NCBI GenBank assembly: GCA_050258075.1
Contig: JBLMYC010000023.1
Coordinates: 1 to 40,250, forward strand
DNA length: 40,250 nucleotides
Reading direction: 5' to 3'
Origin: Acidobacteriota bacterium
Lineage (GTDB): Bacteria; Acidobacteriota; Thermoanaerobaculia; Multivoradales; JAGPDF01
Shown here: piece by piece, positions 9,229 to 18,836 of the stretch
Layout: the number at the start of each line of letters is the position of its first letter
Position numbering within the stretch: position 1 is the first letter of the stretch
Program-made: the position numbers and the translations under genes
The notes under the pieces: generated by a model
Told to the model about the DNA's origin: nothing
What the model saw: only the letters and a program-made list of their open reading frames with translations
Database searches by the model: none

Positions 9229-10583
9229 GCGGCGCCTCCGATCTCCCGCTCGATGGCGGACGCGAGATCGGCGGCGAGGGTCTCGATCAGGCCCTGCTCA
9301 GGTCCCTCGATCATGATGCGCGCCAGGGGCTCGGTGCCGCTGTAGCGCAGCACCAGGCGGCCGTCGCTGCCCAGCCGCGATTCGACCCGGTGCCGCGCGG
9401 CGGCGACCGCAGGCAACCCGTCGAGATCGGGCTTGCGCGCCACCCGGACGTTGCGCAGCAGCTGCGGAAAACGGCGGAAGCCGGCGAGCAGGGCGGACAG
9501 CGGGCGCTGGGCAGCGGCGACCACGGCGGCGAGGTGGAGGGCGGTCAGCAGTCCATCGCCGGTCGTCGCCAGCCGGAGATTGACGATGTGACCCGACTGC
9601 TCGCCGCCGAGTGACAGTCCCCGGCCGCGCAGCGTCTCCACCACCGCACGATCGCCTACGTCGCAGCGCACGACGCCGATGCCCTCGGCGGCGAGGGCGC
9701 GCTCGAGGCCGAGGTTGCTCATGCTGGTGGCGACGATCGCCGCCGGCTCGAGCTCGCCTCTGCGTCGCAGGGCGGTCGCCCAGAGATAGAGCATGGCGTC
9801 GCCGTCGCGTACCTCGCCGCATTCGTCGGCGAGGATCGCACGATCGGCGTCGCCGTCGAACGCGACCCCGAGATCGGCGGCGATCTCGCGCACCCGCCCG
9901 GCGATCACCTCAGGATGCGTCGAGCCGCAGCCGCGATTGATGTTGCGCCCGTCGGGCCGGTCGTTGATCACATCGACCTCGGCGCCGGCGTCGGCGAAGA
10001 GCGCCGGTGCGTGCGGGGTGGCGGCGCCGTTCGCGAGGTCGAGCGCGATGCGCAGGCCGGCGAGTGGCCGCCCCCCGGGCAGGGAGGCGAGGAGGTCGTC
10101 GAGGTAGACGCGGCCGGCGCCGACATCGGCGGCGAGGTCGGTGGACGCCGCGGACGGCGCGTCAGCGCTCGCCAGCAGACGGCGCTCGAGCTCGGCCTCG
10201 TCGGCCGGGCCCCACTTGAAGCCGGCCGCGTCGAACAGCTTGATGCCGTTGTCGGGATGAGGGTTGTGGCTGGCGGAGACCGCGACGCCGGCGGCGGCGG
10301 AGAAGTGGCGCACCAGCTCCGCGACGCCCGGGGTCGGCAGGACGCCGGCGAGCTCGCAGCGCGCGCCGGCCGAGGCGAGGCCGGTTGCGAGCCATTCCGC
10401 GATGCGCGGCGTCGAGTCGCGGGTGTCACCGCCGAGAACGACGAGCGGCGCCGCGGCCCTCTCTGCAAGCCAGCGGCCGAGCTCGCGCCCGAGCCGGGTC
10501 ACGGTCGCGCGGTCGAGCGGATACTCGCCGGCGACGCCGCGCATGCCGTCGGTTCCGAACAGGACGGGGCGGGGAGCGCTCAG
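9225..10583 (-). CDS. glmM: Phosphoglucosamine mutase
   Basis: FGTDGMRG, SASHNP, DGDADR, GGEQSGH and LRYSGTEP motifs. The conserved FGTDG lies upstream of the track's ATG 10544, so the start is extended to CTG 10583, which overlaps the cdaR stop. Confidence 0.93.
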   Translation of the reverse strand: MSAPRPVLFGTDGMRGVAGEYPLDRATVTRLGRELGRWLAERAAAPLVVLGGDTRDSTPRIAEWLATGLASAGARCELAGVLPTPGVAELVRHFSAAAGVAVSASHNPHPDNGIKLFDAAGFKWGPADEAELERRLLASADAPSAASTDLAADVGAGRVYLDDLLASLPGGRPLAGLRIALDLANGAATPHAPALFADAGAEVDVINDRPDGRNINRGCGSTHPEVIAGRVREIAADLGVAFDGDADRAILADECGEVRDGDAMLYLWATALRRRGELEPAAIVATSMSNLGLERALAAEGIGVVRCDVGDRAVVETLRGRGLSLGGEQSGHIVNLRLATTGDGLLTALHLAAVVAAAQRPLSALLAGFRRFPQLLRNVRVARKPDLDGLPAVAAARHRVESRLGSDGRLVLRYSGTEPLARIMIEGPEQGLIETLAADLASAIEREIGGAA

Positions 10584-11260
10584 GGCGACTTCTCGCGCGG
10601 CCGCGACTCGCCGATCGCGGGCGGCTGCATCGGCACCCGTACCGTCACCATGGTCGGGCGCAGGACCCGCACCAGGGGGTCGGGGCTGACGACCACCGCG
10701 GTCTCCTCGAAATCGAGCGCGTGGCCGTTCAGGTTGACGTTGCTGGTCGTGAGCCAGCGCAGGTCACGCAGCCGCGACTCCGGACCGCTGACCAGCACCT
10801 CGTCGGGCGTGATCGCGACCTCGCCGACGACCGCGCCCGCTGCCGGCTCGCCCATGAGCTTCACCTTGACCGGCAGCGACTTCTGCACCTCGCGGTCGAT
10901 CTGCAGCAGCAGGCGATTGGGCTCGATCGAGGCGACCTCGATGTCCTCCGGCACCACCACGTTGTCGGCGCTGAGCTGGACCTCGACCGGGCCGCGTGCC
11001 CCTTCGGGGACGTTGACCACGACGTCGACCGCGAACTGGTTCAGCGAGCGGATCCGGCTGGTCTTGCCGCGCAGGCGGATGCGCACGTCCTGCACCGGGT
11101 CCACCAGCGTCGTACCGGTGGGCAGGTTGTAGGTGATGGAGGCGTCAATGACCTTCTCGCTCTGCTGCTCGCGGCGCTGCAGGCTGACGAAGAACCACAG
11201 CAACAGAGCGATCGCCAGGGCCAGGAAGCGAATGCCCCACAGGCTGCCGCGGCCGTTCAC
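10580..11260 (-). CDS. cdaR: CdaR/YbbR-domain diadenylate cyclase regulator
   Basis: LALAIALLLWFFV anchor followed by YbbR-like beta repeats; sits between cdaA and glmM; GTG 11260 overlaps the cdaA stop. Confidence 0.85.
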   Translation of the reverse strand: MNGRGSLWGIRFLALAIALLLWFFVSLQRREQQSEKVIDASITYNLPTGTTLVDPVQDVRIRLRGKTSRIRSLNQFAVDVVVNVPEGARGPVEVQLSADNVVVPEDIEVASIEPNRLLLQIDREVQKSLPVKVKLMGEPAAGAVVGEVAITPDEVLVSGPESRLRDLRWLTTSNVNLNGHALDFEETAVVVSPDPLVRVLRPTMVTVRVPMQPPAIGESRPREKSP

Positions 11261-12045
11261 AGATGTGCCCTCCGCCGGACGCTGAGGTCGCGGACCAGAT
11301 GGTCGTACAGCCTGCCGCGCAGCGCCCGGTCGTCGAGGCCGCTCGTGATGCGGCCGTCGAACGCGATCGAGATCTTGCCGGTCTCCTCCGAGACCACGAT
11401 CGCCACCGCGTCGGTCTCCTCGCTGATGCCGAGCGCCGCTCGGTGGCGGGTGCCGAGCTCCTTCGATACCTCCGGATTGGCGGACAACGGCAGGAAGCAC
11501 GCCGCCGCCGCCATGCGATCGCCTTGGATGATCACCGCGCCGTCGTGCAGCGGCGTATCGGGGGTGAAGATGTTGATCAGCAGATCGTAGGAGATCGTGG
11601 CGTTCAGCGCGATGCCGTTCTCGACATAGTCGCGCAGGCCTTCGAGGCGCTCGAGCACGATCAGCGCGCCGATCCGGCGGCTGGCGAGGGTGGTGCAGGC
11701 GAGCACGATGTCGGAGAACGCGGTCTCCGGGTCGACCGCGGCGTGGCGGCGGCCGAGCGGGTTACGGCCGAAGCTGGCGAGGGCGCGGCGGATCTCGTGC
11801 TGGAACAGAACCACGATCGCGAAGGGCAGCACGATCAGGAACTTCTCCAGCACCGTGGTCAGGGTCTCGAGGCGCGCCAGCCGCGCCAGGTCGTAGACCA
11901 GCCCCACGAACAGGATGCCGAGCAGGATCTGCACGGCGCGGGTGCCTCGGATCAGCAGCAACAGGTAGTACAGGACCAGCGCCACCAGAAGGACGTCGAC
12001 CAGATCGCGCCAAGTGAGGAGCCGCAGGAGGACCGGGAAGCTCAC
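11257..12045 (-). CDS. cdaA: Diadenylate cyclase CdaA
   Basis: Three N-terminal TM segments, FQHEIRRAL, TPLHDGA and GTRHRAA; GTG 12045 overlaps the folP stop. Confidence 0.95.
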   Translation of the reverse strand: MSFPVLLRLLTWRDLVDVLLVALVLYYLLLLIRGTRAVQILLGILFVGLVYDLARLARLETLTTVLEKFLIVLPFAIVVLFQHEIRRALASFGRNPLGRRHAAVDPETAFSDIVLACTTLASRRIGALIVLERLEGLRDYVENGIALNATISYDLLINIFTPDTPLHDGAVIIQGDRMAAAACFLPLSANPEVSKELGTRHRAALGISEETDAVAIVVSEETGKISIAFDGRITSGLDDRALRGRLYDHLVRDLSVRRRAHL

Positions 12046-12947
12046 TCGCCGGCCTCGCTTGCGGAGCCGCCGATTGCCCGCCAGATCTCGAGGAACTGCA
12101 CGGTCTCGGCGACGTCGTGGACGCGAAGCAGCGCCGCGCCGCCCTCCACCGCCCGCGCCGCGGCGGCGAGGCTTCCCGCCAGGCGGCGCTGCGGCTCGGC
12201 GCCGGTCAGGTTGCCGATGAAGCTCTTGCGGCTGGCGCCGACGAGCAGCGGACGGTCGAGCGCGCCGAGGACGTCGAGCCGGCGCAGCAGCAGCAGGTTC
12301 TGCTCGGTGGTCTTGCCGAAGCCGATCCCGGGGTCGAGGATCAAGCGCTCGGCCGCGATGCCCGCGGCGGTGGCGCGGCGCATGGCGTCGGCGAGCTCGT
12401 TGCGCACCTCGCGCAGCACATCGGCGAACTGGATGTCGCGCTGCATGGTCGCCAGGGCGCCGCGCGAGTGCATCAGCACGACCGGGCAATGGGCCGCCGC
12501 CAGGGTGGCGCCCATCTCCGGGTCGGCGAGGGCGCTGACGTCGTTGACCAGGTCGGCGCCGGCGGCGAGCGCGGCACGCGCCACCGCCGCCTTGCGGGTG
12601 TCGACCGAGATCGGCGCGGCGGTGCGCACCCGCAGGCGGCGCAGCACCGGCAGCAGGCGGGCGATCTCCTCCTCGGCGGGGACCTCGCGCGCACCGCCGC
12701 CGTAGACCCCGCCGCCGGGGCGTGTCGACTCGGCGCCGAGATCGACCAGATCGGCACCCTGCGCCAGGAGCTCCATCGCGTGGTCGGCGGCGCGGTCGGC
12801 CTCCAGCCACAGGCCGCCGTCGCTGAACGAATCCGGAGTGATGTTCACCACCCCCATGACCAGGGGACGATGGCCGAGCTCGAGCGCGCGTCCCTGGGGG
12901 AGCGCGAGAGTCCAGCGGCGGGGCGGCGCGTCGATCAGCTTCGTCAT
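12042..12947 (-). CDS. folP: Dihydropteroate synthase
   Basis: MGVVNITPDSFSDGG, GAESTRPG, DPGIGFGK, SRKSF and LRVHDV motifs. Confidence 0.96.
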   Translation of the reverse strand: MTKLIDAPPRRWTLALPQGRALELGHRPLVMGVVNITPDSFSDGGLWLEADRAADHAMELLAQGADLVDLGAESTRPGGGVYGGGAREVPAEEEIARLLPVLRRLRVRTAAPISVDTRKAAVARAALAAGADLVNDVSALADPEMGATLAAAHCPVVLMHSRGALATMQRDIQFADVLREVRNELADAMRRATAAGIAAERLILDPGIGFGKTTEQNLLLLRRLDVLGALDRPLLVGASRKSFIGNLTGAEPQRRLAGSLAAAARAVEGGAALLRVHDVAETVQFLEIWRAIGGSASEAGE

Positions 12948-13036: not shown

Positions 13037-14977
<1,941 letters not shown>

Positions 14978-15018: not shown

Positions 15019-15552
15019 TCAGGATTCCCTCTCGATTACGCGCCCGACGTAGGGAAGGTTGCCGTGCCGCCCGTGATACTTGAGCCCGTAGCCGACGAAC
15101 GTGCCGTGCCGCTCGACGATGAAGGCCGAATAGTCGACCGCGAAGCTGGCCCGGCGCTCGCTCGGCACGTCGAGCAGGGCCGCGAAGCGCACCGTCTGCG
15201 CGCCATGCTGGCGGAGCTGCTGCTCGAGGTAGACGTCGATCACGCCGGTCGCGACGATGTCCTTGAGCACCAGGAGGTTCTGGCCGGCCAGGTCGAGCGG
15301 GATGGGGAAGTGGATCTCGCGCGGGCCGCTGTCGTCGGGGGTCGTGTAGCCCACCTGGATGAACTCGAAGCGCAGCGGCGTCTTGATCGCGCGCAGCAGA
15401 TCGGTGAGGAAGAACACCGAGCCGCCGAGCAGTGACACCACCACCGGATCGTCCTTGCCGAGGTCGTGCTCGATCATGCTCCCCAGGTCCGCGACCCGGG
15501 CCGCGACCTGGTCGGCGGCGAACAGCGGCTCGATCCTCGGTGGTACGGTCAT
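15019..15552 (-). CDS. hpt: Hypoxanthine phosphoribosyltransferase-like protein with a degenerate active site
   Basis: Full-length HPRT-like sequence in the tilS-hpt-ftsH position, ATG overlapping the tilS stop. Motifs are altered: LLGG, KDIVATG, LLDV, GYGLKY, HGNLPY. Confidence 0.8.
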   Translation of the reverse strand: MTVPPRIEPLFAADQVAARVADLGSMIEHDLGKDDPVVVSLLGGSVFFLTDLLRAIKTPLRFEFIQVGYTTPDDSGPREIHFPIPLDLAGQNLLVLKDIVATGVIDVYLEQQLRQHGAQTVRFAALLDVPSERRASFAVDYSAFIVERHGTFVGYGLKYHGRHGNLPYVGRVIERES

Positions 15553-16895
15553 TCCGCCTCCAGCTCCGCCAGCCACGCCGTGCGCTCGCCGCGCAGGCGG
15601 CAGCGCTCATCGATCGTGATCCCTGGCACCCAGACGATCCGCCCTTCGACGATCAGCAGCGGGATCGAGTCCCGGCCCTCCGCGGGCACGTGGCGGTCGA
15701 TGAGGACGTCCTTCAGCCGACGCTCGCCTGGTCCGCCCAGAGGATGCAGCCGGTCGCCCGGCCGGCGGTTGCGCACCGTGATGGTGTCGCCCTCGCGCAG
15801 GGCCAAAGTCAAGCCCGCCCGTCGAGGATCGCCGGCGTACATCCAATCGTCGACGGGTGTCGGCCGCAGTTGCAGCCGGAGCCCGATCTCGGGGATCGCC
15901 ACGGCACCGGGCACCCGAACAGTATACGTGAACGGCGGGGTCGGCCTCGGCGGACGCCGAAGCTCGAGACGGTCGGGCCCGACGACCCACTGCCAGCCGT
16001 CTCCGCAGTGGCAGACGGCGCGCGCCCGGCGCTCGAGCTGGCGGGCGAGCTCGGCGCGGGCTCGGCGGCTGGCGGGGTAGGGGATCGAGGCGAGCCGGCG
16101 GAGCAGGTCGAGGGCGGGTTCGCGAAGGGCGCTCGGCAGGCGGTCGTAGCTTTGGCGGTCGACCGCGATGGAGCTCGGTCCGATCTCTGGCCGAAGGGCC
16201 TCTTCCAGGCGGCGTTCAATCGACCTCTGCGCTCCCGCTGCTGCGGCGGCGAGGTCTGCCAGCTTGACGGCGAGCGTTTCCGGGTCGGGGTCCAGTCCCG
16301 GCAGGAGGTACCTGCGAATCCTGCCCCTGCGGTTCGAGCCATCCTCGTTGGTCGGATCGAGCGTGGGCTCGAGCCCAGTCGGCGGCAGGGAAGCGAGGAT
16401 CTCCCGGCGTCCGAGCGCGAGGAGCGGCCGGACGACCGCTCCATGGCGGGGCCGGATGGCGCTCAGACCCGCGACGCCGGTGCCCGCGAGCAGGCGCAAG
16501 GCCACCGTCTCGGCCTGGTCGTCACGGTGGTGGGCCGTGGCGATGAGCGCGGCTCCGGAGCGCCGGCGCCGCTCCTCGAGGAACGCGTAGCGCACCCGGC
16601 GGGCGGCCGCCTCGACGCTCTCTCCGGCTCGGCGCTCGGCGTCCACCGGGCGGCGCTCGATCTCACACGGAATCCCCAACTCGCCGGCCAGGGCGGCGGC
16701 ACGCTCCGCGCGGCGGGCGCTGTCGGGGTCGAGGCCGTGATCGAGATGGGCCGCGGTGAGGTGCAACGAGAGGATGCTGCGCACCGTTGCCAGACCGGCG
16801 AGGAGTGCCAGCGAGTCGGGGCCGCCGGAGAAAGCCACGAGCACGCCGGCGCCGGGCGGCAAAGGGCTGACATCGCGGAAGAAACGCAGGATCAC
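15549..16895 (-). CDS. tilS: tRNA(Ile)-lysidine synthetase
   Basis: AFSGGPDS, HLDHGL, EAAARRVRY, TAHHRDDQAET and a C-terminal domain (RNRRPGDR...RDSIPLL). Start uncertain; first GTG outside the tRNA was used. Confidence 0.93.
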   Translation of the reverse strand: MILRFFRDVSPLPPGAGVLVAFSGGPDSLALLAGLATVRSILSLHLTAAHLDHGLDPDSARRAERAAALAGELGIPCEIERRPVDAERRAGESVEAAARRVRYAFLEERRRRSGAALIATAHHRDDQAETVALRLLAGTGVAGLSAIRPRHGAVVRPLLALGRREILASLPPTGLEPTLDPTNEDGSNRRGRIRRYLLPGLDPDPETLAVKLADLAAAAAGAQRSIERRLEEALRPEIGPSSIAVDRQSYDRLPSALREPALDLLRRLASIPYPASRRARAELARQLERRARAVCHCGDGWQWVVGPDRLELRRPPRPTPPFTYTVRVPGAVAIPEIGLRLQLRPTPVDDWMYAGDPRRAGLTLALREGDTITVRNRRPGDRLHPLGGPGERRLKDVLIDRHVPAEGRDSIPLLIVEGRIVWVPGITIDERCRLRGERTAWLAELEAE

Positions 16896-17006: not shown

Positions 17007-17103
17007 GTTGGGCTGCATGCGGGTCGGAGGGACTGCCGAAAGGCGACAACGACAGGCTGCGCGCTCGCCTGCCCGCCGTGCGATTATATCCGAGGGCGGA
17101 ACC

Positions 17104-17283
17104 ATGAAGCGAGCGACAGAAGCCTGCCACCTCTGCGGCAAGACGCGCGAGGCAACCTACCTCTACAAGTGCGTCATCTGCCACAAGAGCTTCTGCCGGT
17201 CCTGCGGCGTGCGGAGCCACGGGAAGTTCTTCTGCAGCGCTCGCTGCGCCGACTACTTCTTCTTCGGCGACGAGGACGACTGA
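17104..17283 (+). CDS. Small Cys-rich putative zinc-binding protein (59 aa)
   Basis: MKRATEACHLC...CVIC...CRSC...FCSARC...FFFGDEDD; GAGGG RBS-like element; GC3-rich codons. Confidence 0.8.
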   Translation: MKRATEACHLCGKTREATYLYKCVICHKSFCRSCGVRSHGKFFCSARCADYFFFGDEDD

Positions 17284-17333: not shown

Positions 17334-17666
17334 CTAGCGCAGCGCCTGCTGGCAGGAGCGGAACTGCCCGAAGAACTCGCGCATCGACGACGAGAGCGCG
17401 TCATCGTTCAGACGATAGACGACGTTCTGTCCCCGGCGCTGGTCGACGACGAGGTTCGCTTCCTTGAGCACCGACAGGTGGCGCGAAATCGTCGGCTGCG
17501 AGAGGCTGAAGTTGCCCACGATCTCGCCGACCGTGCACTGATTCCGCTCCAGCAGCCGCAGGATCTCCTGCCGCGTGCCGTCCGACAGGGCCTTGAACAC
17601 CTTGGTCATCTGCCGTCCCGGCCGCATGGTCACGACACCGCGCTGGATTCGCTCGCTCATTTCCAT
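17334..17666 (-). CDS. ArsR/SmtB family transcriptional regulator
   Basis: FKALSDGTRQEIL, LSQPTISRHLSVLKEANLV and RRGQNVVYRL; ATG 17666 has a GAGGGAG RBS (17609 is an alternative start). Confidence 0.92.
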   Translation of the reverse strand: MEMSERIQRGVVTMRPGRQMTKVFKALSDGTRQEILRLLERNQCTVGEIVGNFSLSQPTISRHLSVLKEANLVVDQRRGQNVVYRLNDDALSSSMREFFGQFRSCQQALR

Positions 17667-17714
17667 TTGTTCTCCCTCAGGGCCATCCACGGCACGAAAG
17701 GCTACGCGAACCAT

Positions 17715-17893: not shown

Positions 17894-18499
17894 CTAGCCG
17901 CGGGCGCGGTGGAAGCGCTCTTCGACCGCCTTCCAGTTGACCACGTTCCACCACGCCGCGAGGTAGTCGGCGCGACGGTTCTGGTACTTGAGGTAGTAAG
18001 CGTGCTCCCACACGTCGACCCCCAGAATCGGCGTCTTGCCCTCCATCAGCGGGCTGTCCTGGTTGGGCCGGGGGAGGATTTCGAGCTTGCCGCCGGCTGC
18101 GACCAGCCAGCCCCATCCGGAGCCGAACTGTCCCATCGCTGCGGCGTTGAGTTTCTCCTTGCAGGAGTCGATGGTGCCGAAGGCCGAGTCGATCGCAGTC
18201 TTCAGGTCACCGGACGGGGAACCGCCGCCGGGGCCCATCACCTGCCAGAACAGGCTGTGGTTGGCGTGACCGCCGCCGTTGTTGCGCACCGTCGTGCGGA
18301 TCGCCTCGGGGACTCGGTCGATTTGCCGCAGCAGCTCCTCGACCGTGAGCTTCTGCAGGTCGGGGTGGCTCTCGAGCGCCTTGTTGAGGTTGTTGATGTA
18401 GGCCTGATGGTGCTTGGTGTGGTGGATCTCCATCGTGCGCGCATCGATGTGCGGCTCGAGGGCGTCGTAGGCATAAGGGAGGCGGGGCAACTCGAACAT
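17894..18499 (-). CDS. sodA: Superoxide dismutase (Mn-type signature)
   Basis: [26 protein letters not shown] and DVWEHAYY motifs. Confidence 0.95.
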
Positions 18500-18642: not shown

Positions 18643-18717
18643 GGGAGGTTAGCTCAGTGGTAGAGCACCTGCCTTACACGCAGGGGGTCGCGGGTTCGAG
18701 TCCCTCACCTCCCACCA
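18643..18717 (+). tRNA. tRNA-Val (TAC)
   Basis: GGGAGGT/ACCTCCC acceptor stem, CTGCC-TTACAC-GCAG anticodon region, GGTTCGAGTCC, CCA end. Confidence 0.96.
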
Positions 18718-18759
18718 GGCTTGCCGTTGGGGGAGGGCGGCCGGAGCAGGAGACCTTGC

Positions 18760-18836
18760 GGGGTCGTAGTTCAGCTGGTTAGAACGCCGGCCTGTCACGC
18801 CGGAGGTCGCGGGTTCGAGCCCCGTCGGCCCCGCCA
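18760..18836 (+). tRNA. tRNA-Asp (GTC)
   Basis: GGGGTCG/CGGCCCC acceptor stem, CCGGC-CTGTCAC-GCCGG anticodon arm, G discriminator, CCA end. Confidence 0.97.

Follow-up and report, generated by a model that had tools for sequence, protein, structure and literature searches.

We identified an intact gene for a remodelled hypoxanthine phosphoribosyltransferase (HPRT) in DNA of an Acidobacteriota bacterium. The gene lies between tilS and ftsH in the stretch analysed (contig JBLMYC010000023.1, 40,250 nucleotides; hereafter the window). The predicted protein has an HPRT-type fold in which residues for catalysis and ligand binding are replaced. The replacements are fixed in homologues, and a canonical HPRT is encoded elsewhere in the genome. 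We favour the interpretation that this variant is a pseudo-HPRT, probably kept for a non-catalytic role linked to tilS and ftsH.

The open reading frame contains no internal stop codons. Its ATG (positions 15552-15550) shares four nucleotides with the tilS stop codon TGA (15551-15549), and the GGAGG (15561-15557) is 4 nt 5' of that ATG. Both the intact frame and its coupling to tilS had been proposed in a preliminary description of this DNA, and both can be read directly. The ftsH start is 41 bp downstream of the variant gene. The cdaA gene, for c-di-AMP synthesis, is found two genes downstream. Between positions 11000 and 18000, a scan covering sigma-70-like promoters alone identified no sites, and two terminator-like sites were found against 2.1 expected. 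No public sequencing run held at least half of the window's words; RNA runs held 0.06 of them. Contigs from the RNA runs aligned almost only to the conserved AAA core of ftsH (approximately 13430-14600), with 90-95% likeness, indicating that they derive from other organisms.

Table 1. Features of the tilS-ftsH region and replaced pocket motifs of the variant, in window coordinates.
Feature	Position	Strand	Basis
Variant HPRT-fold gene (type A pseudo-HPRT)	15019..15552	-	Open reading frame and translation: 177 aa plus stop
ATGA overlap of variant start and tilS stop, 4 nt	15549..15552	-	Read from sequence
GGAGG, Shine-Dalgarno-like, within tilS 3' end	15557..15561	-	Read from sequence; putative function
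tilS (tRNA-Ile lysidine synthetase), 469 aa	15549..16958	-	PF01171, 147.2 bits; PF11734 (TilS_C), 69.1 bits
ftsH, 646 aa	13037..14977	-	Peptidase_M41, 222.9 bits; AAA, 158 bits; FtsH_ext, 60 bits
Loop I, residues 41-44, LLGG (canonical LKG)	15421..15432	-	phmmer alignment; Gly43 in 120/121 homologues
PRPP-motif loop, residues 97-105, KDIVATGVI (canonical EDIxDTGxT)	15238..15264	-	phmmer alignment
Residues 127-129, LDV (canonical LDK, purine O6-binding Lys)	15166..15174	-	phmmer alignment
Loop IV, residues 154-166, GYGLKYHGRHGNL (canonical GYGLDY..YRNL)	15055..15093	-	phmmer alignment

Family searches place the variant with HPRTs. It scores 39.4 bits against Pfam PF00156 (cut-off 26.3) and 94.4 bits against the HGPRTase equivalog model of NCBIfam, TIGR01203, which is under the cut-off of 150. 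Solved HPRTs (1r3u, 2geb, 6d9q and 3h83) align to it by phmmer with E values of 4e-24 to 4e-22. The AF2 model (pLDDT 88.3, pTM 0.84) is of low confidence at the loop II block, residues 71-80 (pLDDT 54). In Foldseek searches, the best match to this model was HPRT 3h83 (TM 0.84, E 7e-19), and the top matches were all HPRTs (TM 0.81-0.85). We conclude that the variant is, as modelled, a type I PRT fold of the HPRT type. Of 28 variant-family members, all are matched by HPRT models (best E 9.5e-33) and eight by PyrR models, the latter weakly (best E 5.6e-5). We rejected membership of the PyrR/PurR-type regulators, as the best family match is HPRT and not PyrR.

We focused on the pocket, using 121 homologues (52-99% identity) for residue counts and 88 representative canonical HPRTs for comparison. 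By phmmer mapping, human Glu133, Asp137, Lys165, Asp193, Arg199 and Lys68 correspond in the variant to Lys, Ala, Val, Lys, Gly and Gly, respectively. In the alignments, vLKGa is replaced by LLGG, EDIIDSG by KDIVATG, LDK by LDV, GYGLDY by GYGLKY and YRNLP by HGNLP. Arg199, with Asp193 of loop IV, binds Mg-PPi, and Lys68 belongs to loop I. Ligand or catalytic roles are listed in Table 2 of PMC2228302 for human Glu133, Asp134, Asp137, Lys165, Asp193 and the Thr138-Thr141 phosphate loop. Briefly, Mg and the ribose hydroxyls are bound by the Glu-Asp pair of the PRPP motif, Asp137 is catalytic and Lys165 hydrogen bonds to purine O6 (PMC2228302). Contacts of the 5'-phosphate loop are mostly via the backbone (PMC2228302, Table 2).

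None of the 88 canonical HPRTs departs from the acidic pair of the PRPP motif or from the catalytic Asp, which aligns with position 101 of the variant and has a frequency of 1.00. Asp (position 158) and Arg (position 164) likewise reach 1.00 in these sequences, compared to 0.97 for Lys at position 129 and 0.73 for the Lys of loop I. Of these residues, the variant family keeps the Asp of the acidic pair and has the others replaced. Lys97 (canonical Glu), Lys158 (canonical Asp) and Gly164 (canonical Arg) each occur in 121 of 121 homologues, as does Asp98. Position 101 is Ser in 57 homologues, Thr in 49, Ala in 12 and Gly in three; none has Asp, and the window has Ala. Position 129 is Ile, Met, Leu or Val, with Lys in 0 of 121 and Val in the window. 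The following marks of HPRT membership are not in canonical form in the variant: the PRPP acidic pair, the catalytic Asp, the O6 Lys, the loop IV Asp and Arg, and the loop I Lys.

Loop II of HPRT closes over the transition state. Its Ser and Tyr, found in 0.92 and 0.94 of canonical HPRTs, respectively, are variable or gapped in type A. The preliminary description had listed a change from SSY to VGY here. A change is evident; the precise form is less secure, with Tyr placed differently between alignments and the loop variable and gapped across the family. The other substitutions proposed, Gly43, Lys97, Ala101, Val129, Lys158 and Gly164, are all seen in our alignments. Parts of the pocket are kept. 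The 5'-phosphate loop reads A-T-G-V-I at residues 101-105 of the window and [STA][ST]G-V-T in homologues, with Gly103 in 95 and Thr105 in 96 of 121. Asp128 is invariant (121/121) and the GYGL motif is retained. The preliminary description had proposed a test of motif conservation in orthologues; the patterns KD..[STA][ST]G and GYGLK..GN are kept in the 121 homologues.

The gene's location is also conserved. Among 41 sampled genomes of the window's order, 12 have the variant and 29 do not, and all 12 loci are between tilS and ftsH. All 80 loci from named MAGs are flanked by tilS on the upstream side and by ftsH on the downstream side, in the same orientation; 75 passed strict adjacency flags, the other five failing since the best HSP was a fragment. 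Of the 118 loci having tilS upstream, 81 show the 4-nt overlap of start and stop codons, which extends the proposed coupling beyond the window. In all 20 variant-less genomes of the order that were examined, tilS abuts ftsH directly. Since the gene is missing from 29 of 41 genomes, any role for TilS or FtsH would not be essential. Two TilS-HPRT fusions were found in the data: P0207 has the canonical residues, and P0128 has those of the variant. The latter (696 aa, on a 2.7-kb contig) joins PP-loop, TilS_C and variant PRT domains in one protein. It is the only clear TilS-variant fusion, to which one read-through locus (L116) can be added; each of the two may reflect a mistake in assembly or sequencing. 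A further candidate fusion in genome G008, an open frame of 654 aa, was rejected as tilS ends at this locus in the same 4-nt overlap as elsewhere. The 654-aa frame is an alternative one that stays open over a long stretch because the DNA is GC-rich.

The genome of the window encodes a canonical HPRT on another contig (G000, C46) that scores 200.1 bits against TIGR01203, above the cut-off of 150. The search for such a gene had been suggested together with the original observation. A canonical copy is present in all 41 genomes of the order (the window's and 40 relatives) and none adjoins tilS or ftsH. We built an IQ-TREE phylogeny of 112 rows, leaving out the six signature columns. In it, canonical copies without tilS linkage group as a single clade (53 rows, SH-aLRT 99). 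A second clade (51 rows, SH-aLRT 99) unites the fully changed type A, to which the window gene belongs, with a half-changed type B; type A (32 rows, SH-aLRT 99) is nested inside type B. Canonical copies linked to tilS in other classes are placed between those clades. The tilS-linked lineage is hence graded: canonical in other acidobacterial classes, type B in other orders of Thermoanaerobaculia, a class of soil Acidobacteria, and type A in the window's order. Two type B genomes of genus g37, G319 (98% complete) and G422 (97%), have no HPRT above the TIGR01203 cut-off, and type B, at any rate, may still serve in salvage there.

To assess selection, dN/dS was calculated by NG86 for 505 non-independent pairs with amino acid identity of 0.72-0.995 and dS < 2. 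The median for the variant was 0.25 and the maximum 0.55. Medians for the neighbours were 0.31 for tilS (474 pairs) and 0.22 for ftsH (475 pairs). We conclude that the variant gene is under purifying selection. The gene could be viewed as a decaying relic on its way to becoming a pseudogene, its frame still open by chance. Consistent with this, 29 of the 41 sampled genomes no longer carry it, and one locus (G004) appears frameshifted near its 3' end. However, the replacement residues are fixed across homologues that are not near-clonal, with identities as low as 40%. The low median dN/dS, the confidently predicted fold, the conserved coupling to tilS and the class-wide occurrence of the family also count against a relic. 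Because the replacements are fixed in 121 homologues and selection is purifying, we do not attribute the pocket to chance or decay, and we consider a relic extremely improbable. The same evidence upholds the case against decay made in the preliminary description.

It is also very improbable that the variant is an ordinary active HPRT, merely divergent, whose substitutions are tolerated or compensated. By sequence and fold, HPRT is its best match, and many members carry the JGI name hypoxanthine phosphoribosyltransferase. Against this, six positions for ligand binding or catalysis differ simultaneously, the equivalog score is short of the cut-off and a true canonical HPRT is in the same genome. 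Furthermore, the titles of PDB entries 1i13, 1i14 and 1i0l ('Analysis of an invariant aspartic acid in HPRTs') mark the Asp as a recognised invariant. A different possibility is that the protein is still an enzyme but with altered chemistry or substrate. Lys97 and Lys158 would then replace Mg ions, and the enzyme would act on a phosphorylated ribose compound. Examples would be use of a different base, a nucleotide-processing reaction or metal-independent use of PRPP related to tRNA modification. The invariant Lys97, Asp98, Asp128, Lys158, Gly164 and GYG do resemble a working active site, and GYGL and the 5'-phosphate loop are kept. Because these pocket residues are strictly invariant, and not merely tolerated, we count such an enzyme among the possible, if unlikely, explanations. 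The low dN/dS, like that of ftsH, and the genus g37 genomes, which carry type B alone, also agree with it. Conversely, the PRPP acidic pair and catalytic Asp are without exception in the 88 canonical HPRTs compared, and loop II has lost Ser-Tyr, is variable and gapped, and is modelled with low confidence. The base-recognising Lys is swapped for any of four hydrophobic residues, and losses within the order are frequent. Binding of (p)ppGpp, raised in the preliminary description, was also considered. Side chains of Glu99, Asp100, Lys131 and Arg165 contact (p)ppGpp in B. anthracis Hpt-1 (PMC6783271, section 7). Three of the four equivalents (Glu99, Lys131 and Arg165) are changed in the variant. 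This weakens the canonical binding mode, and a site of that kind is unlikely; a remodelled site may still exist.

The interpretation that best accounts for our data, and one we think reasonably probable, is a pseudo-HPRT retained for a non-catalytic role linked to tilS and ftsH. We infer loss of HPRT activity from the replaced residues. The variant would descend from an HPRT traditionally encoded between tilS and ftsH. Purine salvage in Thermoanaerobaculia would be done by the second, unlinked canonical HPRT. The tilS-linked copy would have lost residues for Mg-PRPP and PPi binding, 6-oxopurine recognition and transfer catalysis. This loss may have taken two steps, giving type B in other orders of the class and then type A in the window's order. 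Translational coupling could ensure that the variant is made in a fixed ratio with TilS. The protein may then act as a TilS-associated regulatory subunit, or as a sensor, for the function of tilS and ftsH. By analogy, such a role may have descended from the 'trigger enzyme' arrangement of the Bacillus TilS-HprT complex. The remodelled pocket keeps the 5'-phosphate loop and a hydrophobic base cleft. Invariant Lys97 and Lys158, in place of metal-binding carboxylates, would suit metal-independent binding of a phosphorylated ligand. Prediction of a complex of TilS with the variant, from a 28-row alignment of each, gave no answer, with a score of 0.00 where the mark was 0.32, and counts neither for nor against binding. 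Type A proteins are acidic, with a median net charge of -8 and pI of 4.95, compared to -4 and 5.28 for canonical HPRTs. A direct DNA- or RNA-binding subunit was also entertained and dropped, the variant family being acidic. A more detailed proposal is tentative, and we regard it as doubtful. The variant may sense a phosphorylated nucleotide without the help of metal, from within a stoichiometric complex with TilS or FtsH. Candidate ligands would be PRPP, c-di-AMP, an alarmone and a purine mononucleotide. In this way, both the decoding of AUA and the quality control of membrane proteins could be linked to nucleotide status.

Compared to bacterial HPRTs (TIGR01203; 1r3u, 3h83 and 6d9q), the variant shares the type I PRT fold (TM 0.84), approximately 30% identity and the same length. 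Both have the phosphate loop, the GYGL hood motif and the Asp that is second in the acidic pair of the PRPP motif. The variant does not share the loop I Lys, PRPP Glu, catalytic Asp, O6 Lys, loop IV Asp, PPi-binding Arg and loop II Ser-Tyr, and its score is under the equivalog cut-off. To our knowledge, the order tilS-hpt-ftsH is conserved in distant bacteria, and the Bacillus TilS-HprT complex is the sole functional link so far reported. The primary paper on the B. subtilis complex is reportedly that of Lin et al. in 2014. In B. subtilis, tilS and hprT overlap, upstream of ftsH, and the TilS-HprT complex activates the ftsH promoter (PMC8152036, section 2.1). This review documents the association of HprT with TilS in Bacillus that the preliminary description had named; for the fusion in Listeria, named there as well, no paper was found in the literature searched. 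The variant occupies the same place as Bacillus hprT (PMC8152036), and shares with that locus the gene order and overlapping frames. However, HprT of Bacillus is catalytically active and moonlights in addition; in the present case, catalysis appears to have passed to a paralogue that is not linked to tilS. The likeness is one of gene arrangement, and the natural fusion P0128 lends indirect support to a possible physical complex with TilS.

Two further comparisons are instructive. In PyrR and PurR of Bacillus, the PRT fold is reused for regulation and ligand sensing, in the case of PurR with (p)ppGpp. These regulators keep the acidic PRPP motif. The variant is not a member of either group and has no DNA-binding domain. 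Vertebrate PRTFDC1 is an HPRT paralogue that exists beside a working HPRT and is without the catalytic Asp, with far fewer changes to active-site residues. Its sequence match to the variant is detectable (PDB 2jbh, E 6.7e-8). Unlike the variant, PRTFDC1 has no tilS/ftsH context, and it stems from an independent eukaryotic duplication.

No prior description of a tilS-linked pseudo-HPRT was found in the literature searched, which was that outside subscription journals. Papers listed on HPRT together with pseudoenzymes dealt with PRPS and with trypanosome APRT, none was found that joined HPRT with Thermoanaerobaculia, and those on PRTFDC1 had no relevant titles. Most likely, the variant is a PRT-fold pseudoenzyme, a known kind of protein, in a form apparently undescribed in print. 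For metabolic reconstruction of Thermoanaerobaculia, the JGI name is probably wrong. Two roles of HPRT appear to have been split, with the chemistry kept elsewhere in the genome and the tilS-linked copy retained under ftsH-like selection. The variant should retain only non-catalytic function. It offers a handle on whether HPRT has such a role with TilS or FtsH. The passage from canonical HPRT through type B to type A is also a stepwise natural series for the conversion of an enzyme pocket. If the variant is indeed a sensor, it would be a natural separation-of-function allele, and the widespread linkage of tilS, hpt and ftsH would be explained by a non-catalytic role of HPRT.

The protein encoded by the variant, an HPRT-like gene between tilS and ftsH, matches Pfam Pribosyltran (39.4 bits). 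Its best phmmer matches among PDB sequences are HPRTs (1r3u, 3.9e-24; B. anthracis Hpt-1, 6d9q/3h83, ~3e-22). Alignments to these contain the substitutions LGG, KDIVATG, LDV, GYGLKY and HGNL claimed in the preliminary description. An AF2 model (pLDDT 88.3, pTM 0.84) superposes on HPRTs with TM 0.81-0.85. Its low-confidence part, residues ~71-80 (block pLDDT 54), is the counterpart of the HPRT catalytic flexible loop. Since the confident model superposes on HPRTs and the motif residues are changed, the HPRT fold is predicted to be intact, and the chemistry-bearing side chains are gone.

Residue changes in the variant. Motifs are from phmmer alignment to PDB HPRTs; counts are from the best 120 of 313 homologues plus the window protein; numbering follows the window protein.
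Position	Canonical motif	Window motif	Canonical residue	Residues among 121 sequences
43	vLKGa	LLGG (Gly43)	Lys	Gly 120/121
97	EDIIDSG	KDIVATG (Lys97)	Glu	Lys 121/121
98			Asp	Asp 121/121
101	EDIIDSG	KDIVATG (Ala101)	Asp	Ser 57, Thr 49, Ala 12, Gly 3; Asp 0
129	LDK	LDV (Val129)	Lys	Ile/Met/Leu/Val; Lys 0
158	GYGLDY	GYGLKY (Lys158)	Asp	Lys 121/121
164	YRNLP	HGNLP (Gly164)	Arg	Gly 121/121

In human HGPRT, Lys68 and Arg199 have roles in PPi binding. For the human HGPRT-GMP complex, Table 2 of PMC2228302 assigns phosphate binding to the Asp137-Thr141 loop, largely via backbone, ribose binding to Glu133 and Asp134, and base binding to Lys165, Val187, Asp193 and Asp137. The variant has lost every side chain contacting Mg-PPi, the ribose-Mg site, N7 and O6. 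It keeps the backbone loop for phosphate, a hydrophobic cleft for the base, and Asp98/Asp128, and at the former metal-ligand positions it has two lysines that are invariant. Thus the fold and phosphate loop of an HPRT are present; the acidic pair, catalytic Asp, O6 Lys and PPi/Mg ligands are missing. The score against TIGR01203, the NCBIfam HGPRTase equivalog profile, is 94.4 bits, below the curated cut-off of 150. Because both the score and the active site fall short, the variant does not qualify, judged by its sequence, as a functional (equivalog) HPRT.

In B. anthracis Hpt-1, section 7 of PMC6783271 describes one site common to ppGpp and PRPP, comprising Glu99, Asp100, backbone 103-107, loop I, Arg165, Mg and Lys131; mutation of side-chain contacts strongly reduced ligand binding. 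Of the four side-chain contacts described there, the variant differs at three. For this reason the (p)ppGpp binding suggested earlier appears unlikely in its canonical mode.

The preliminary description proposed looking for a canonical hpt elsewhere in the genome. A TIGR01203 search of the window's assembly (2.4 Mb, 65% complete) found one, at 200.1 bits, on contig C46. Its motifs are LKG, SSYG, EDIVDTG, LDK, GYGLDF and YRNLP. A second ORF follows it in the + direction (locus L001, ~1990-2405). Among 41 genomes of the order, the window's own included, an orthologue of this canonical gene occurs in all 41 (tblastn 185-274 bits; the window's own is a self-match), and neither tilS nor ftsH was found within ~2 kb of it (0/41). 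The variant is present in 12 of the 41, always between tilS and ftsH (12/12). The other 29 lack it, and tilS is followed directly by ftsH in 20/20 examined. Hence, the variant is an accessory, dispensable gene within the window's order.

Positions of the variant, its neighbours and the canonical copy.
Feature	Position	Strand	Remarks
Variant HPRT-fold gene	15019..15552	-	ORF, 177 residues, no internal stop
Variant start ATG	15552-15550	-	read from sequence
Stop TGA of tilS	15551-15549	-	overlaps variant ATG, giving ATGA
folP, CdaA-type diadenylate cyclase and YbbR/CdaR-like genes	10580-12947	-	directly 3' of ftsH
Canonical HPRT, 180 aa	contig C46 of the window's genome (G000), 1758-2300 (= L001:1465-2007)		all canonical motifs

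In the window, GGAGG lies 4 nt 5' of the variant ATG. The ORF upstream is tilS (PP-loop 147.2 bits, TilS_C 69.1 bits) and ftsH begins 41 bp 3' (Peptidase_M41 222.9 bits, AAA 158 bits). Because folP (Pterin_bind 249.9 bits), cdaA (DAC 151.6 bits plus CdaA_N) and the YbbR/CdaR-like gene lie downstream, the string of tilS, variant and ftsH continues into c-di-AMP synthesis. The 517-aa ORF at 11257-12810 extends cdaA too far and overlaps folP. Upstream of tilS, and divergent, is a 91-aa ORF (17008-17283, +) with several CxxC pairs (CHLCGK..CVICHKSFCRSCG..CSARC), for which a Pfam match was not found. It neighbours genes for an ArsR-family regulator (17334-17714, -) and an Fe/Mn superoxide dismutase (17894-18499, -). 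Genes for tRNA-Val(TAC) and tRNA-Asp(GTC) occupy 18643-18836 (+).

The claimed ATGA coupling is seen in the window and recurs widely. Of 132 loci surveyed, 118 had a tilS match upstream; in 81 of these, the HPRT-like start codon and the tilS stop share a 4-nt overlap. Spacing differs in 36, mostly within ~60 nt, and the remaining locus, L116, has a tilS frame that continues into the variant. Co-translation with TilS is thus predicted. Fusions also occur: protein P0128 (696 aa) joins PP-loop, TilS_C and the variant PRT domain in a single chain, and P0207 joins PP-loop to canonical HPRT. Hence, TilS fusion is found in both working and changed HPRT lineages. Protein P0180 (576 aa) has a canonical HPRT domain, then an incomplete FtsH (AAA starting at profile position 38, lid, Peptidase_M41); it may be a real fusion or an artefact of gene calling or of a frameshift at an hpt-ftsH junction. 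The primary paper on the B. subtilis TilS-HprT complex is reportedly Lin et al. 2014. The association claimed for Bacillus is documented in section 2.1 of a review (PMC8152036), in which B. subtilis tilS overlaps hprT, both lying upstream of ftsH, and the TilS-HprT complex activates the ftsH promoter.

A word-indexed protein search returned 313 proteins at E <= 1e-5 from 656 candidates, the best 120 being 52-99% identical to the window protein. We refer to this fully changed form as type A. Compared with 88 canonical representatives, type A has exchanged four invariants for other fixed residues (K43G, E97K, D158K, R164G) and gained a single inserted residue, Gly150, that is also fixed. At four other invariants, Ser and Tyr of loop II, Asp101 and Lys129, the residue now varies. 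Conversely, Arg61, Tyr82, Pro85, Gln91, Gln112, Arg114, Arg122, Phe123, Lys134, Thr135, Phe137 and Arg171 are variable in canonical proteins and >90% conserved in type A. Nei-Gojobori dN/dS across 505 non-independent locus pairs (amino acid identity 0.72-0.995, dS < 2) had a median of 0.25 and a maximum of 0.55; the same pairs gave 0.31 for tilS and 0.22 for ftsH. These values rule out neutral decay, and the gene is preserved by purifying selection. At locus L014 (G004:C12, ~370536-371052) two overlapping matches in different frames cover the variant, which is split near its 3' end and has a long tree branch. The split may come from a frameshift or from misassembly of this 55%-complete MAG.

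An exhaustive phmmer search of 1.84 billion representatives gave 5605 matches at E <= 0.001 and 12 at E <= 1e-30. In a FastTree of 147 representatives, sequences with Lys/Arg97 and Gly164 form one clade of 23 (SH-like 99). Scanning species-representative genomes identified 80 variant loci, each preceded by tilS and followed by ftsH on the same strand. The records are titled as Thermoanaerobaculia, Acidobacteriota, 'Holophagales' or 'Ca. Multivoradales' MAGs, and one as a 'Deltaproteobacteria' MAG. The latter (L150, JAHZIX010000033.1, 'Deltaproteobacteria bacterium') encodes a variant identical to that of G036, from the window's order; its NCBI label is probably a mis-assignment.

We fetched 40 loci from a phylum sample of 401 genomes. 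In other orders of the class, all 19 loci, one for every matching published genome (19/20; unpublished G063 was left out), carry a half-changed, tilS/ftsH-linked form, type B. Here ftsH is adjacent in 19/19 and tilS matched in 17/19. Type B retains the loop I Lys and has Lys97 (19/19); position 101 is Ser/Thr/Ala/His/Arg, never Asp; 129 is Arg, Lys or, once, His; 158 is Glu (16), Gly (1) or unaligned (2); 164 is Gly/Ala/Ser/Thr, never Arg. The 20 loci from other classes comprise 12 unlinked canonical copies and 8 tilS/ftsH-linked copies, of which 6 have fully canonical residues, L191 has Gln for Glu and L193 is odd. In an IQ-TREE analysis of 112 rows, with the six signature columns removed, types A and B form one clade (51 rows, SH-aLRT 99), with type A (32 rows, SH-aLRT 99) nested within type B. 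The 53 unlinked canonical copies together form another (SH-aLRT 99), and linked canonical copies of other classes fall between the two. The simplest history is that Acidobacteriota have two old HPRT lineages, linked and unlinked, and that in Thermoanaerobaculia the linked HPRT shed its catalytic residues in two stages. As the tree has no established root, this direction is inferred from the outgroup, where the state is canonical throughout.

PyrR, PurR and vertebrate PRTFDC1 are PRT-fold proteins put to non-catalytic use. The variant resembles them in this respect but belongs to none of these families. A literature search covering few subscription journals found no published description of it. 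The main rival to a non-catalytic role is an enzyme with altered chemistry, which we consider unlikely. It draws on the invariance of the pocket residues and on genus g37 of the same class. Of 10 type B genomes checked, 8 had one or more HPRTs scoring above the TIGR01203 cut-off; none was found in G319 and G422 (both g37; 98% and 97% complete), where the only HPRT-like copy is type B and tilS-linked. Hence, type B may not be fully inert; in g37 either it keeps some salvage activity or the genus is without HPRT. We propose that the variant would no longer transfer phosphoribose and would serve as a non-catalytic, TilS-associated subunit or sensor. Its pocket, lined with lysines, may accommodate a phosphorylated ligand independently of metal. 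Because type A proteins are acidic (median net charge -8), DNA or RNA binding by the variant alone is not expected. The variant would represent a class-wide natural separation-of-function form, through which the unexplained tilS-hpt-ftsH linkage becomes directly testable.
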